This document shows, in pieces, positions 52,352 to 59,121 of a stretch of DNA of 64,000 nt (the first letter of the stretch is position 1; every line of letters starts with the position of its first letter). This stretch comes from Promethearchaeota archaeon (GTDB lineage: Archaea > Asgardarchaeota > Lokiarchaeia > Sigyniarchaeales > SOKP01). The DNA lies in NCBI GenBank assembly GCA_019058445.1, contig JAHPZA010000006.1, forward strand, positions 576,001 through 640,000, written 5' to 3'. Position numbers and translations under genes: made by a program. The notes beneath the pieces were generated by a model, which saw only the letters and a list, made by a program, of their open reading frames with translations, was not told the DNA's origin and ran no database searches.

Positions 52352-53098
52352 ATGAAAACTAATTCACTTAAAAAATTGAAAGTTGGAATAGTATCTGATG
52401 GAAAATATGGTGAAAGAGCTTTTGAGAATATAAAGAGGAACTTTAAAGTATACTGGATTCTCGTTCCAGACATACCTTCTAACATCATGTTAGATGATGA
52501 TTTAGAACTTGATATCCCTGATTGCGATTTATACGTTTCTTACGTTAGACATCCAGATATTATCTTGGAATTAGTAGACCTTCAAAAGCCATTGATACTT
52601 GGCGTATTACCGGGTGTTGGTCTATTAAATCAAGCAAGAACCATAAATCCATATGTAATTCATGCTCCCACCATGTGTTCTCTTGAGAATGATACAGGAA
52701 TTCCAGAAATTGACATATTTACAACCTATTACGGAAGGCCAATTTATGAGCCTAAAATTGATGAAAGTGGAAAATTTAAAGAAATAAAAGTAAAACGCTC
52801 ATCATTATGCGGATCTTCTGAAGCAGGAGCAGATTTTCTTTTAAATAAGGAATTCAACACTGAAAACCTTCAAAATTTTGCATTAAGTGTTTGTCATGAA
52901 TGTCGCGCGCCCCGGTTCGGCCATACATGTGATAAGGAAGTTGCTGGAGTCAATCATTTAGTTTCACTTTTAAATGCGATATCTCCTGAAGATTTGTCTC
53001 AGATTGATCAAAATTTAAGGCTTTTCATCGAAAGTATGAGAGATGAATACTCTAAAAGAATAAATAATTCTAGAATATTATTAAATAAAGTTAGTTAA
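52352..53098 (+). CDS. DUF166-like cysteine-containing protein
   Basis: DGKYGERA, PTMCSL, YGRP, RSSLCGS, CRA pattern. Confidence 0.65.
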   Translation: MKTNSLKKLKVGIVSDGKYGERAFENIKRNFKVYWILVPDIPSNIMLDDDLELDIPDCDLYVSYVRHPDIILELVDLQKPLILGVLPGVGLLNQARTINPYVIHAPTMCSLENDTGIPEIDIFTTYYGRPIYEPKIDESGKFKEIKVKRSSLCGSSEAGADFLLNKEFNTENLQNFALSVCHECRAPRFGHTCDKEVAGVNHLVSLLNAISPEDLSQIDQNLRLFIESMRDEYSKRINNSRILLNKVS

Positions 53099-55125: not shown

Positions 55126-56775
55126 ATGGCCGTAACCTATATGCGTAGATTGGAGGAAGAACCAGAAACTTACGATTTAAAATTTACAGCTCTCACTAAG
55201 GGACTAAATATCAAAGTTCAAGAGTGGGTATTGCGTCGAATTCCTGATTCCCAATCAATTTTAGAAGTAGGTTGCGGTACTGGCGCTCTAGCATCGAAAA
55301 TGGCACTTAAAGGTAATAATGTTGTTGCAATTGATAAAAACTTTCAAATGATTAATTATGCAATGCAAAATTATCCTTCTGAAGAGAATGTCAATCTTTT
55401 ATATCAAATTGGAACATTTACAGAATTCCCAGTTGAGAAGAATTCAAAGGATATAATTGTGAGTACTTTTATGTTATCTGAGCTTAGACCATTTGAACAT
55501 CAAATATTTTTGCGAAAAGCATGGAGTGCTCTAAAACCAAATGGTCGAATCATATTAGCTGCTGAATTTATTCCTTCAGGAATTTGGAGGATTCCTTTTA
55601 AAATAAAGCGTTGGTGGTTTAAAAAGAAATTACGTAGACTCAGATTAAGAACTACTTTCTTAGTAAAATGGTTTTATAATTATATTGAGCCAATCGGCTT
55701 TAAAATTCAAACCCTAAAAACTTGGAAACACGGTTCCATACAAGCTATGGAATTAGTAAAGCTAGGCAAAGAACCAGGATTTTATCGCCCCAAACCAAAA
55801 AAGTTTAAAGGAATCCGCGCTCAACTAAGGATATATCGATGTTTATTTACTGGTCAGATTGATCATGTTCCCATAGAACCCGGTATTTATCAATCCGGGC
55901 ACCCTAATGAAAATTCCCCCATTATAGTTACAGCGAATTACGAGTATACATACATTAAAGTTATGCGTAACCTAAAAGGACTTGATGCGTGGGTTTTATG
56001 TGTAGATTCCAATGGAATAAATGTATGGTGCGCTGCTCGTGGTAATGATTTTGGAAATGCCCAATTACTTGAAGCAGTGGAGGCAACAGAAATTCGCAAT
56101 CTTACACAGAAAAAAAAACTTTTACTTCCCCAACTCTCTGCTGGTGGAGTTGCTATACCACAATTACCTAGAAATTCAGAAAATTTTCCATTTAAAATTG
56201 TCTATGGCCCAATTTGGTCAAAAGATATTCGGAAGTATAATGATGAACAACCCGTAAGAAAACCAGACTCAATGAAAATTGCTAAATTTACGGTTTCCCA
56301 TCGAATACGAGCAGGGATTACACATACGACTTTTCTTTTAAGAAAAATCTTTCTTTTACCTCTTATAATCATAGCAGGTTTGTTGTTAGCATTAAATTGG
56401 GAAAATAAGTTATGGTGGATTGGAGAATTATTCATGTGGATTATAATAACAAACGCAATTATCGCTTTTTTATTCCCTCTTTCAAATTTTACCAGAAAAT
56501 TCATTAATAAGGGAATTTTCTTTGGAACTATTAATATATTAGTTTTAGGAGGGATTTCTTGGATATTGCATGGATCATTACTCTTTATTCTCTGGAACTT
56601 GAGTTTTTATTTTTGGATTGCATTTTTTTCCACTATGTCTTTTAGCGGATATACAATGTCAACAAGTCCAAGGGAAATTCAAACCGAATATAGGTTGTTT
56701 TTGATGGTAAATAAAATTTTACTTATTATAAGCTTATTTTTTTTAGCTTTTGGAATAATATTTTATATAATTTAA
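55126..56775 (+). CDS. hgcA: Class I SAM methyltransferase fused to an HgcA-like corrinoid protein (cap helix NVWCAARG plus TM domain)
   Basis: LEVGCGTG; EPGIY, SPIIVTANY, GINVWCAA, LLLPQLSAGGV, YGPI; C-terminal TM helices ending in ST..SP.EI. Confidence 0.8.
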   Translation: MAVTYMRRLEEEPETYDLKFTALTKGLNIKVQEWVLRRIPDSQSILEVGCGTGALASKMALKGNNVVAIDKNFQMINYAMQNYPSEENVNLLYQIGTFTEFPVEKNSKDIIVSTFMLSELRPFEHQIFLRKAWSALKPNGRIILAAEFIPSGIWRIPFKIKRWWFKKKLRRLRLRTTFLVKWFYNYIEPIGFKIQTLKTWKHGSIQAMELVKLGKEPGFYRPKPKKFKGIRAQLRIYRCLFTGQIDHVPIEPGIYQSGHPNENSPIIVTANYEYTYIKVMRNLKGLDAWVLCVDSNGINVWCAARGNDFGNAQLLEAVEATEIRNLTQKKKLLLPQLSAGGVAIPQLPRNSENFPFKIVYGPIWSKDIRKYNDEQPVRKPDSMKIAKFTVSHRIRAGITHTTFLLRKIFLLPLIIIAGLLLALNWENKLWWIGELFMWIIITNAIIAFLFPLSNFTRKFINKGIFFGTINILVLGGISWILHGSLLFILWNLSFYFWIAFFSTMSFSGYTMSTSPREIQTEYRLFLMVNKILLIISLFFLAFGIIFYII

Positions 56776-57147: not shown

Positions 57148-57537
57148 ATGGAAAAAGAAGAATTAAAAAAAATTGAAAATTCTTGTTGTACACAAAGCAC
57201 ATCGTGCTGTGGAAGTGCTGAGTCAGATCTTATCGATACATCAACTAATAAGGGGATTAAAAATGAATTAGATCCAAGTAAGCTAAATGTTGATATATAT
57301 GTTCCTCTAGACGCCTGTGCATGCGAGTGGTCTCAATTTATGAATCTTATTTTTAGTGCCCTTACACCACATATTAAATATATTAAATATGAAACAAAAA
57401 ACTTAAATTCTAAAGAAGCTCGAAGCCTTAATATTCGGAGCAAATGCGTTATAGTTGACGGAGAAAAAAAATATACAACCTCATATGCCTTAAAGAAAGA
57501 TCTACCTAATTTATTGAAAGAAAAGGGAATCCTATAA
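57148..57537 (+). CDS. Cys-rich thioredoxin-fold/ArsD-like putative metallochaperone
   Basis: SCCTQSTSCCG, DIYVPLDACAC, CVIVDG. Confidence 0.55.
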   Translation: MEKEELKKIENSCCTQSTSCCGSAESDLIDTSTNKGIKNELDPSKLNVDIYVPLDACACEWSQFMNLIFSALTPHIKYIKYETKNLNSKEARSLNIRSKCVIVDGEKKYTTSYALKKDLPNLLKEKGIL

Positions 57538-57574: not shown

Positions 57575-58045
57575 ATGAAAAAGATTTTTTTTGATATCAA
57601 TTTACCAATAAAGAATTTTCAAAAGGGTAAGAAGTACACAGTTGAAGTAAAAGACAACGCTACATTTTTAGAATGTCTCGCGATGGTTGATAAGCAAGAA
57701 CTCGAAGATCCAAAATCCATTTTTCCTATAAACGAGGGATTTATCCACAATTATTTACAGTTATTGGTTAACATCGAAGAAAATTATATTTACGATGATG
57801 TAGGGGTATATGCTTATGGTCCGGATGAAAATGGACTTATGAGAAAATTCATTCCAATTAGAGATAATGTAGAATTTAACGTATATCCTGACAGTGAAAT
57901 TCAATTACAACCTGATGTTGGATGTTGATGAGAAGCGGTGCAAGATCGGCTGGATATTGGAAAATTTAAAACAGTCCTACGTAAACGATATGGGAAAGAT
58001 AACGATTATTTTGCACATTACTTTAAAAAAGAAAAAGAAAAATAA
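57575..58045 (+). CDS. MoaD/ubiquitin-like protein, candidate selenoprotein (…PDVGC-U-U-EAVQDRL…KEKEK, 156 aa; 117 aa if the first TGA is a stop)
   Basis: TGT TGA TGA at 57923-57931; frame open for 37 codons to TAA 58043-58045; SECIS-like hairpin immediately 3'. Confidence 0.7.
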
Positions 58046-58094
58046 TATGTTGAATGAAATCTTTCAAAAAATTGTAGTGAAAGATTGACAATAG
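58046..58094 (+). ncRNA. Eukaryote/Lokiarchaeota-type SECIS element (cis-acting 3' UTR hairpin)
   Basis: TGTTG A ATGA AATCTTTCA AAAAATTGTAG TGAAAGATT GA CAATA: AUGA/GA core, perfect 9-bp upper helix, A-rich apical loop, lower helix. Confidence 0.75.
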
Positions 58095-58161
58095 GACCGC
58101 CTCCTATATTTCTTAATGAATAATTTAAAAAATCTCGTTATATTTTCTATCGTGAATATAT

Positions 58162-59121
58162 ATGGATATTTTCTCACATTTTTTATTTGCAATGCTGCTA
58201 TGTGTTTACTTTATGAGGTCATCCAGCGAGGAACTTGTAATTTTTGCAGGTTTAATGGCAGTATTGGCTGATTTTGATGTTTTTTTGCATTCTTTTAAAG
58301 TTGTGAGAAAATCTAAATTGTTGACCCATAAAGGAATTTCTCACTCTTATTTTGCTGCTCTAATTGTGTCTGCGCCTGCTGCGGGTATTTTTTCTTTAAT
58401 AACAGGAGAATCATTTCTACTATCTTGGATGATTGGCTTTATTTTTTATAGTCTTCATGTTACCCTCGATGCTTCAGCCGCATCTAAAATCCCTCTTTTT
58501 TATCCCATCTCAAAGAAACGGTTTCGATTTTTTATCGATCGGGCAATAAACCCTATATTAGCAATGATTTCAGGTATAGTTCTTCTTTTTTATTTGATTA
58601 TTTATTTTGTTAGTCCCGAGATTTTTTATTCTGATTTAATATATTACGTCTCATTGTTTTATTTCGGATATTTAGCTTACAAAATACTTACTAAAATTTG
58701 GGTTCAATTAAGACTGCCCAAAAATCAAAAATATATCCCCGGAATTCTTCCATTTGTTTACTATATTTACGAAAACCACAATTCAGATGCTAGGCTAATA
58801 TTTACACTCTCCAAAAAATATCAATTTCTTCCGAAAACTATGAAATTAATAGAAACTGAAATTATAACTGGATCTAAAGAAATGGAATATTTTAATAAAG
58901 CGAAAACGCTTAGCAAAAACTATATGTTCTTTTCTAAATGGGAGGCAGTAATTCCGATAATCTTAGACAATAATCGGTTTGTTGTTGTATTGCTTTTTTT
59001 AGCCGAAAGTTATGCTAATGGAAGAGCCTATACACTTGAAGTTGTTTTTGATAAAAATTCAAAAGAGCTGGTCCATATCTCTGATGGATTTGGTCGTGGT
59101 TTAACTGATTACCACAGCTAA
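58162..59121 (+). CDS. Membrane-bound metal-dependent hydrolase (YdjM/DUF457-like)
   Basis: D.FSH, ADFD, HKGISHS, HVTLD, LFYP. Confidence 0.8.
   Translation: MDIFSHFLFAMLLCVYFMRSSSEELVIFAGLMAVLADFDVFLHSFKVVRKSKLLTHKGISHSYFAALIVSAPAAGIFSLITGESFLLSWMIGFIFYSLHVTLDASAASKIPLFYPISKKRFRFFIDRAINPILAMISGIVLLFYLIIYFVSPEIFYSDLIYYVSLFYFGYLAYKILTKIWVQLRLPKNQKYIPGILPFVYYIYENHNSDARLIFTLSKKYQFLPKTMKLIETEIITGSKEMEYFNKAKTLSKNYMFFSKWEAVIPIILDNNRFVVVLLFLAESYANGRAYTLEVVFDKNSKELVHISDGFGRGLTDYHS

Follow-up and report, generated by a model that had tools for sequence, protein, structure and literature searches.

A probable selenoprotein family with adjacent selenocysteines in arsenic/mercury-type gene clusters of Asgard archaea

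Does a small gene in an Asgard archaeal genome end at its first stop codons, or does translation continue through them? The question arises in a 64,000-nucleotide stretch of a Promethearchaeota archaeon (assembly GCA_019058445.1, contig JAHPZA010000006.1, positions 576,001 to 640,000 of the forward strand; hereafter the window), where the translated list of open reading frames (ORFs) includes a forward-strand frame of 117 codons that begins with the ATG at 57575, ends at 57925 with ..LQPDVGC and is followed directly by TGA TGA (57926-57931). The same frame then stays open for 37 codons (57932-58042, encoding EAVQDRLDIGKFKTVLRKRYGKDNDYFAHYFKKEKEK) up to a TAA at 58043-58045, which the sequence and the alignment of related loci mark as the true stop. 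A first-pass annotation, made from the letters of the window without database searches, had described this layout and proposed a hidden selenoprotein behind it, and we find the layout as described. Comparison with related sequences makes it very probable that 57575-58045 is one gene for a 156-residue selenoprotein with adjacent selenocysteines (Sec118-Sec119), not a gene for a 117-residue protein. In the mechanism that we propose, the ribosome would decode both adjacent UGAs as selenocysteine (Sec), directed by a selenocysteine insertion sequence of the Lokiarchaeota type (a type I lokiSECIS) 8 nucleotides (nt) past the true TAA stop, and SepSecS, PSTK, SelB, SelD and tRNA-Sec of the same genome would be used for the decoding.

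The gene is cut short by automated annotation, as the first-pass annotation had expected. A protein search returned 58 homologues, all from Asgard archaea; their table-11 gene calls end at ..Gly-Cys or are fragments, and three calls made with TGA as Trp read Gly-Cys-Trp-Trp-Glu.. into a tail like that of the window. We give the evidence from DNA, using 54 loci from species-representative genomes. All 54 have Gly-Cys followed by TGA TGA and then a 31-residue stretch of constant length and similar sequence that ends in His-Tyr-Phe/Leu/Tyr. The six TGATGA bases show zero variation (entropy 0 at each) among these orthologues, whose synonymous sites are near saturation, and no homologue has the TAA or TAG after Gly-Cys that had been named beforehand as telling against a selenoprotein. 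The ratio of nonsynonymous to synonymous differences (pN/pS) is 0.23 over the 33 codons from the first TGA and 0.29 over the 20 codons before it, and the entropy of the tail by codon position is 0.55 / 0.38 / 1.04. A stop occurs in the two other frames of the tail in 52 and 54 of the 54 loci, and in the tail frame itself in one. Judged by this coding signature of three-base periodicity with the other frames closed, the tail is under purifying selection, and the conserved extension suspected at the outset is thus found across the 54 loci.

Two full-length homologues, P0077 and P0094, carry sense codons at the TGATGA site (Val-Ser and Ile-Thr, in the contexts ..Thr-Cys-Val-Ser.. and ..Gly-Cys-Ile-Thr..) and then the homologous tail in one ORF. 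Since both run continuously through the site, domain and tail constitute one polypeptide; these two sequences demonstrate ORF continuity, not Sec/Cys interchange. They are the only Sec-free homologues that we found, and none was found with Cys at the Sec positions. Stop-codon usage in the genome (31% GC) points the same way: long open frames stop at TAA in 75% of cases and at TGA in 12.6%, and TGA-TGA tandems number 2 of 1984, so an ordinary tandem stop would have drifted to TAA. Two 151-nt contigs of a sediment metatranscriptome, 95-97% alike, span 57701-57975 with no difference reported at TGATGA, which is too little to count as expression evidence.

Two irregularities were seen among the relatives. 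In locus L013 (4355-4468) a third TGA lies within the tail, at the conserved Gly of ..Asp-Ile-Gly.., and may be either an additional Sec or an error of sequencing. At the other end of the gene, 27 of 57 family genes (including L021:1625-1630) offer none of the start codons ATG, GTG and TTG in the interval from the preceding in-frame stop to the conserved motif at the N-terminus. In 17 of these 27 an ATT stands at that place, which suggests ATT initiation, and gene callers start all 27 late, producing database fragments of 94-104 residues.

A lokiSECIS has been defined as an AUGA before a stem of 9 base pairs (bp), an 11-nt loop, and GA (or AA) after the stem; the first five bases of the loop prefer A, its final position is an ultraconserved G that mostly follows an A, and the element lies near the end of the coding sequence (PMC4989117). 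The forward-strand hairpin at 58050-58091 has every one of these features, and on that ground we identify it as a lokiSECIS of type I. It consists of a 3-bp UUG/CAA helix, an unpaired A, AUGA (58054-58057), a 9-bp helix (58058-58066 with 58078-58086), the 11-nt loop AAAAAUUGUAG (58067-58077), GA (58087-88) and a C. We found the element after 60 of 64 family genes; two of the exceptions lie at contig ends, one belongs to a tandem pair of genes whose only element follows the second, and in the fourth, L037, the element stands past an intervening small ORF. Across the 60 copies the UGA of the AUGA is invariant and its leading A is present in 59, while, relative to the first base of the stop, the AUGA itself starts anywhere from 1 nt upstream to 31 nt downstream. 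All nine stem pairs form in the window, and stem and loop have equal lengths in nearly all copies. No copy departs from AAA at loop positions 3-5, from G at the last loop position, from the G-U at the loop end or from the A of GA, and GA or AA follows the stem in every copy.

The case for this element rests on cross-genome comparison, because the hairpin folded alone (-8.6 kcal/mol, z -1.7) is only marginally beyond shuffles and no Rfam family recognizes it. In the alignment of the 60 copies, 94.9% of the cells of the 9-bp helix are paired and seven of its nine pairs show double changes; for the whole proposed structure 91.9% of cells are paired and 13 of 17 pairs change on both sides. Sliding the partners by 1-3 columns leaves 42-57% of cells paired, compared with 91.9%, and none of 500 shuffles attains the observed pairing or covariation values. 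RNAalifold recovers the main helix without guidance, and distant members of the family have SECIS-like elements whose shape is the same although their stem sequences are unrelated. The eukaryote-type, Loki-like SECIS that the first-pass annotation placed after the gene is thus supported both by the published features and by covariation. The lower helix that it drew (TGTTG/CAATA) stands in part: the 3-bp UUG/CAA portion is conserved, and the outer 2 bp compete with a second hairpin (58092-58096 with 58102-58106).

This second hairpin, UAGGA-5 nt-UCCUA at 58092-58106 on the forward strand, lies directly 3' of the SECIS; 89% of its cells are paired and three of its five pairs show double changes in 60 sequences. 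A 5-bp hairpin (AGG..CCU or CCU..AGG) likewise follows the SECIS of distant members and of a PrxL gene in the same genome (contig 3 near 331300), and it is not part of the published lokiSECIS description (PMC4989117). We also built a covariance model (R1) from the SECIS elements of the family, a model dominated by the stem sequence of the family. In its own genome R1 has one strong match, its own site, at 68.7 bits, and none of the weaker genome matches lies behind a selenoprotein gene. Run with filters off, it gives 12.6 bits to the SECIS of the distant member L090 and 26.6 bits to the downstream SECIS of L037. At this last locus (L037:2174-2442) the family gene is followed by a 72-codon zinc-ribbon-like ORF (CPHC..CQNC) with four in-frame TGA and no TAA or TAG, after which comes the lokiSECIS at 2397-2442. 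The zinc-ribbon ORF may be a second small multi-Sec selenoprotein, with both genes sharing one SECIS.

The first-pass annotation had left the Sec machinery to be confirmed, and the source genome (4.6 Mb in 10 contigs, 92.6% complete) has it. We identified SepSecS (380 bits; contig 6, 1056455-1057600), PSTK (149 bits), SelB (242 bits; contig 6, 1064111-1065010) and a SelD that itself has Sec in its Gly-Sec-Ser-Cys-Lys motif. Between SepSecS and SelB lies a tRNA-Sec candidate with a UCA anticodon and a CUUCAAA loop (contig 6, 1059799-1059877, minus strand). The PrxL gene serves as a control: it encodes a UxxU redox box (contig 3, 331473-331874) and is followed by AUGA, a 9-bp stem, AAAAACUUUAG and GA-C. 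Some further genes were seen in this search. A second peroxiredoxin-like gene (contig 6, 495907-496281, minus strand) has one in-frame TGA (..Ser-Sec-Pro-Tyr-Cys..), and a simple pattern search found no lokiSECIS within 160 nt past its stop. On contig 10, an AUGA followed by a 9-bp apical helix lies 3' of SelD (463853-464689, minus strand), an arrangement resembling the type II SECIS that has been reported for Asgard selD. The FlpD/MvhD and NiFe hydrogenase genes of the genome have no in-frame TGA in their matched parts.

The family co-occurs with Sec biosynthesis. In a survey of 400 genomes of the phylum, the gene occurs in 138, including 117 of the 134 genomes of the window's own taxonomic family, and all 150 matches listed have two or three in-frame TGA. 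SepSecS was found in 133 of the 138 positive genomes (the other five are 66-95% complete), and no genome of the SepSecS-free taxonomic families carries the gene. Several SepSecS-bearing taxonomic families outside the class are also without it, so the protein family belongs to this class alone, across which it extends. When 1.84 billion representative proteins were searched exhaustively with a profile, only 42 family members came up, and many of the more distant ones are again cut at ..Pro-Asp-Ala-Gly-Cys. Distant members in five mostly single-contig genomes have Cys-Sec-Sec plus tail. The source genome has a single copy of the family, and other loci contain paralogues next to the orthologue (L034:2215-2664, L039:450-908, L053:3387-3839, L060:2085-2546 and others). 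These are of two types: one reads ..His-Ala-Asp-Sec-Sec-Ala-Asp.. and the other ..Ser-Ala-Sec-Gly-Sec-Sec-Ala-Lys.., with three Sec within four residues. Most paralogues carry their own SECIS, and the paralogue of L059 uses the element after the next gene.

To see what the read-through product might look like, we modelled it with AlphaFold2 from a 42-sequence alignment of read-through products in which Sec was entered as Cys (mean predicted local distance difference test, pLDDT, 88.8; predicted template modelling score, pTM, 0.86). Residues 1-117 were modelled as a beta-grasp domain whose strands and helix have pLDDT around 90, and three tail helices (120-150) pack on it (pLDDT 87-96 for 121-150). 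The Gly-Cys-Sec-Sec loop has lower confidence, with the 111-120 block averaging pLDDT 72, and in the model the Cys-Sec-Sec triad probably sits on a flexible loop. Since the tail is under selection and is predicted to pack on the domain, the option raised in the first-pass annotation that the product ends Gly-Cys-Sec is disfavoured. Its ubiquitin-like, beta-grasp call holds at the level of the fold only: the best match is SAMP1 (Z 7.3, root-mean-square deviation 3.1 over 84 residues), a score that is middling by the tool's own calibration, followed by the transcobalamin beta-domain (Z 7.0), intrinsic factor (about 7), CysO (6.8) and MoaD (5.8), and all matches cover residues 1 to about 117. Foldseek found no match in the PDB at E 0.001 or below. 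Pfam (E 0.01 or below) and NCBIfam gave no family for this protein, and a PDB sequence search gave no match for it or for the product of the gene upstream.

What might such a protein do? The window has a co-oriented cluster, divergent from arsR, that this gene brings to a close. The order is DUF166, ACR3, ArsM, a CpaM-HgcA-like fusion, an HgcB-like ferredoxin, a 129-residue protein that we call p129, and this gene, after which comes a YdjM-family membrane protein. The fusion (55126-56775) joins a CpaM-type methyltransferase to an HgcA-like corrinoid protein; it scores 166 bits where the HgcA cut-off is 275, fits the 'HgcAB-like' model equally well, and may not be a mercury methylase. It has no Sec of its own. 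The DUF166 protein (52352-53098) matches the NCBIfam DUF166 (seleno)protein DfsP weakly (34.5 bits), and its gene has no in-frame TGA. The likely functional partner is p129 (57148-57537, forward strand), whose folded part has a thioredoxin fold (Z 8-9.8; Thioredoxin_3-like by language-model features) with Cys-x-Cys where thioredoxins have CxxC, and whose predicted disordered N-terminal arm carries CC..CC. Counting only loci with enough flanking DNA, p129 is directly upstream in 31 of 51, ACR3 upstream in 25 of 38, an HgcA-like gene upstream in 17 of 38, and ArsR present in 17 of 38. Two loci have the p129 domain fused to the C-terminus of ArsM (L030:2819-3928 and L037:421-1539). Loci without ACR3 and HgcA have ArsR-type regulators with a TPMT-like or MtaA/URO-D-like methyltransferase. 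What these loci have in common is the methylation and export of soft metal(loid)s under ArsR control, by proteins with vicinal-Cys arms, of which the Cys-Sec-Sec loop is the most extreme. This context favours arsenic and metalloid methylation over mercury alone.

Given this context, we hypothesize that Cys-Sec-Sec binds As(III), methyl-As(III) or Hg(II) with high affinity and hands it on, a putative role to which we give slightly less than an even chance. The Hg(II)/As(III) carrier suggested in the first-pass annotation is a reasonable hypothesis. The ligands would be the vicinal selenolates together with the neighbouring thiol, and the soft metal(loid), either As(III) or methyl-As(III) and possibly Hg(II), would be passed between the CC-armed proteins of the cluster: ArsM, the CpaM::HgcA-like methylase, the HgcB-like ferredoxin, p129 and ACR3. 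Such a hand-off would resemble that of ArsD or of the vicinal Cys pairs of MerA and HgcB, with much higher affinity. Like these, the protein would present vicinal chalcogen ligands on a mobile segment within an ars/hgc-type operon; unlike them, it would use selenium for sulfur, its binding is putative, and it has no homology to them. A search for literature on vicinal diselenide and arsenite found nothing specific. For the explanation as a whole, with selenoprotein decoding, the predicted structure and a putative metal(loid) hand-off, we estimate a probability of roughly 55%.

Several observations weigh against this explanation. On the side of decoding, no precedent for adjacent UGA-UGA decoding was found in the literature on Asgard and prokaryotic selenoproteins. 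The tRNA-Sec candidate scores 28 bits, under the Rfam threshold of 47, and ARAGORN detected no tRNA-Sec in the genome. No Rfam SECIS match was obtained in the window or in 57900-58200, whether by the gathering score or with E values up to 10, a miss that is expected because standard SECIS tools overlook lokiSECIS (PMC4989117). R1, run with filters off, gives the PrxL SECIS of the same genome 7 bits only, so the kinship of the two elements rests on their common architecture and not on the model score. On the side of function, two homologues (P0077 and P0094) lack Sec altogether. One of them adjoins a NifU_N gene, so the ancestral role of the fold may be broader. About half of the loci have no HgcA-like gene, and three consecutive residues make a strained geometry for chelating a single atom.

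These points have to be set beside the alternatives, two of which concern decoding. If the TGAs were an ordinary tandem stop, the product would have 117 residues, an RNA element or a separate peptide would account for the conservation downstream, and the hairpin would act as a terminator. Every table-11 gene call does halt there, and both the missing Rfam match and the marginal stability of the lone hairpin would be in keeping with it. We give this reading almost no credence: the 31 codons past the TGAs are conserved at the amino-acid level while their third positions vary and the other frames are closed, there is no start codon after the TGAs from which a separate peptide could begin, and the sense-codon homologues run straight through. 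Nor does TAA, the preferred stop, ever replace either TGA, and the invariant unpaired AUGA, AAA, G and GA would be needless for a terminator. The gene also co-occurs with SepSecS. Alternatively, the UGAs might be read through as a standard amino acid (Trp, Cys or Arg, by a near-cognate tRNA) and not as Sec, which we judge very improbable since a lokiSECIS is present, the Sec machinery is complete and the family is confined to SepSecS-bearing lineages. Moreover, neither TGG nor TGY has become fixed at the site in any lineage of orthologues.

The other alternatives accept a gene through the TGAs and differ on its function. Cys-Sec-Sec might be a redox centre that forms a selenenylsulfide or diselenide, like the tail of thioredoxin reductase, and we hold this, the main rival of the hand-off reading, to be unlikely while giving it serious weight. 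The protein shares with the Gly-Cys-Sec-Gly end of that enzyme a Gly-Cys-Sec on a (here predicted) flexible segment and a thioredoxin-fold neighbour; it differs in having an internal motif, a second Sec, a beta-grasp scaffold, 156 residues and no flavoenzyme. The ArsM cycle requires a thioredoxin-type reductant. On this redox reading, the protein would exchange electrons with p129, which would re-reduce the disulfide of the ArsM cycle or reduce As(V) or methyl-As(V); the thioredoxin-fold Cys-x-Cys gene directly upstream and the fusions of its domain to ArsM would suit this. However, the protein has no flavin, Fe-S cluster or nucleotide-binding domain as an electron source, its motif is not C-terminal, the non-Sec homologues retain one Cys only, and the CC arms across the operon fit ligand hand-off equally. 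It is quite improbable, in our judgement, that the protein is a corrinoid-binding module of the transcobalamin/DUF4430 type serving the HgcA-like protein, with selenols that would ligate or protect the cobalt or the methyl-metal product. There are indeed fold matches at Z 6.7-7.0 to the beta-domains of transcobalamin, intrinsic factor and haptocorrin and at Z 6.0 to the DUF4430 protein 3u7z, a DUF4430 cluster ranks second by language-model features (0.82), and an HgcA-like protein is encoded upstream in the 17 loci mentioned above; yet by the tool's own note a model that has no real relatives usually reaches a best Z of around 7, no Pfam family matches at E 0.01 or below, PF14478 included, and over half of the loci have no corrinoid protein at all. 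Finally, the first-pass annotation had suggested a Se-carrier analogue of MoaD, and a MoaD/ThiS/SAMP-type carrier of sulfur or selenium, or an E1-activated protein modifier, might be read from the fold: the match to SAMP1 is the best one, the Z scores for the group run from 5.8 to 7.3, the reactive chalcogen site lies at the end of the last strand, and Gly-Cys is located where sulfur carriers end in Gly-Gly. Against this, the protein has no free C-terminal Gly-Gly, and the 39 residues that follow Gly-Cys, predicted to be packed on the domain as a largely helical 37-residue tail, exclude E1-type chemistry and make thiocarboxylate chemistry impossible; no E1-like gene lies within the cluster either. 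The carrier analogue is therefore disfavoured, and we consider it barely credible.

How does a selenoprotein with a putative metal(loid) hand-off site compare with those already described? The Asgard selenoprotein families reported so far are SelD, FrhA/VhuU, HdrA, FrhD/VhuD, Prx-like, AhpF-N-like and DsbA-like (PMC4989117, PMC11227280, PMC13188914), and a beta-grasp Sec-Sec family is not among the families in these papers. The first-pass annotation knew of no matching selenoprotein family, and our searches of Pfam, NCBIfam, PDB sequences and the Asgard selenoproteome papers agree. The described lokiSECIS selenoproteins (PrxL, VhuU and HdrA-VhuD; PMC4989117, PMC11227280) have the same AUGA, 9-bp stem and 11-nt A-rich loop ending AG, followed by GA, just past the stop, and in PrxL.1 (UxxU) and HdrA-VhuD one SECIS also serves several UGAs. 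The beta-grasp family is unrelated to them, and its two Sec are adjacent. The nearest functional parallel, by analogy, is provided by the bacterial Cys-Sec proteins of organometal systems, namely SaoL, SaoB, SaoC, Sec-HgcA and MbdU (10.1101/2022.07.06.499078; PMC13188914), described by Haft and Gwadz, who take CC and CU motifs as a mark of proteins that handle heavy metals (10.1101/2022.07.06.499078). Both groups have adjacent chalcogen residues, gene calls truncated at UGA, a conserved tail and a context of Hg/As methylation. Unlike the bacterial proteins, the archaeal family would have Sec-Sec in place of Cys-Sec and an archaeal SECIS in the 3' untranslated region, and it shows no sequence relation to them in NCBIfam. 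None of the sources that we consulted describes a protein in which two Sec are adjacent, although such an absence is not proof.

On these data the gene very probably represents a genuine selenoprotein family, apparently not described before, whose recoding relies on the known lokiSECIS mechanism. We propose more tentatively, and with somewhat more doubt than belief, that it is the first natural family built on an encoded vicinal Sec-Sec (in the forms Cys-Sec-Sec, Asp-Sec-Sec and Sec-Gly-Sec-Sec), and that as a carrier based on selenium it would tie the use of this element to the methylation and efflux of arsenic and mercury. The family escaped two dedicated Asgard surveys, the Huang 2024 survey (PMC11227280) among them, because these looked for homologues of known families, and public annotations of the gene appear truncated at Gly-Cys wherever it has been called. 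If the reading is true, the family would be a widespread addition to the short list of archaeal selenoproteins, and in the window's own Lokiarchaeia family it would join SelD and PrxL among the very few proteins that use the Sec system. Its natural back-to-back UGA recoding by one SECIS would make the processivity of Sec insertion testable in a system near the eukaryotic one. It would also place selenium chemistry within archaeal arsenic and mercury methylation operons, in parallel to the CU-motif proteins of bacteria.

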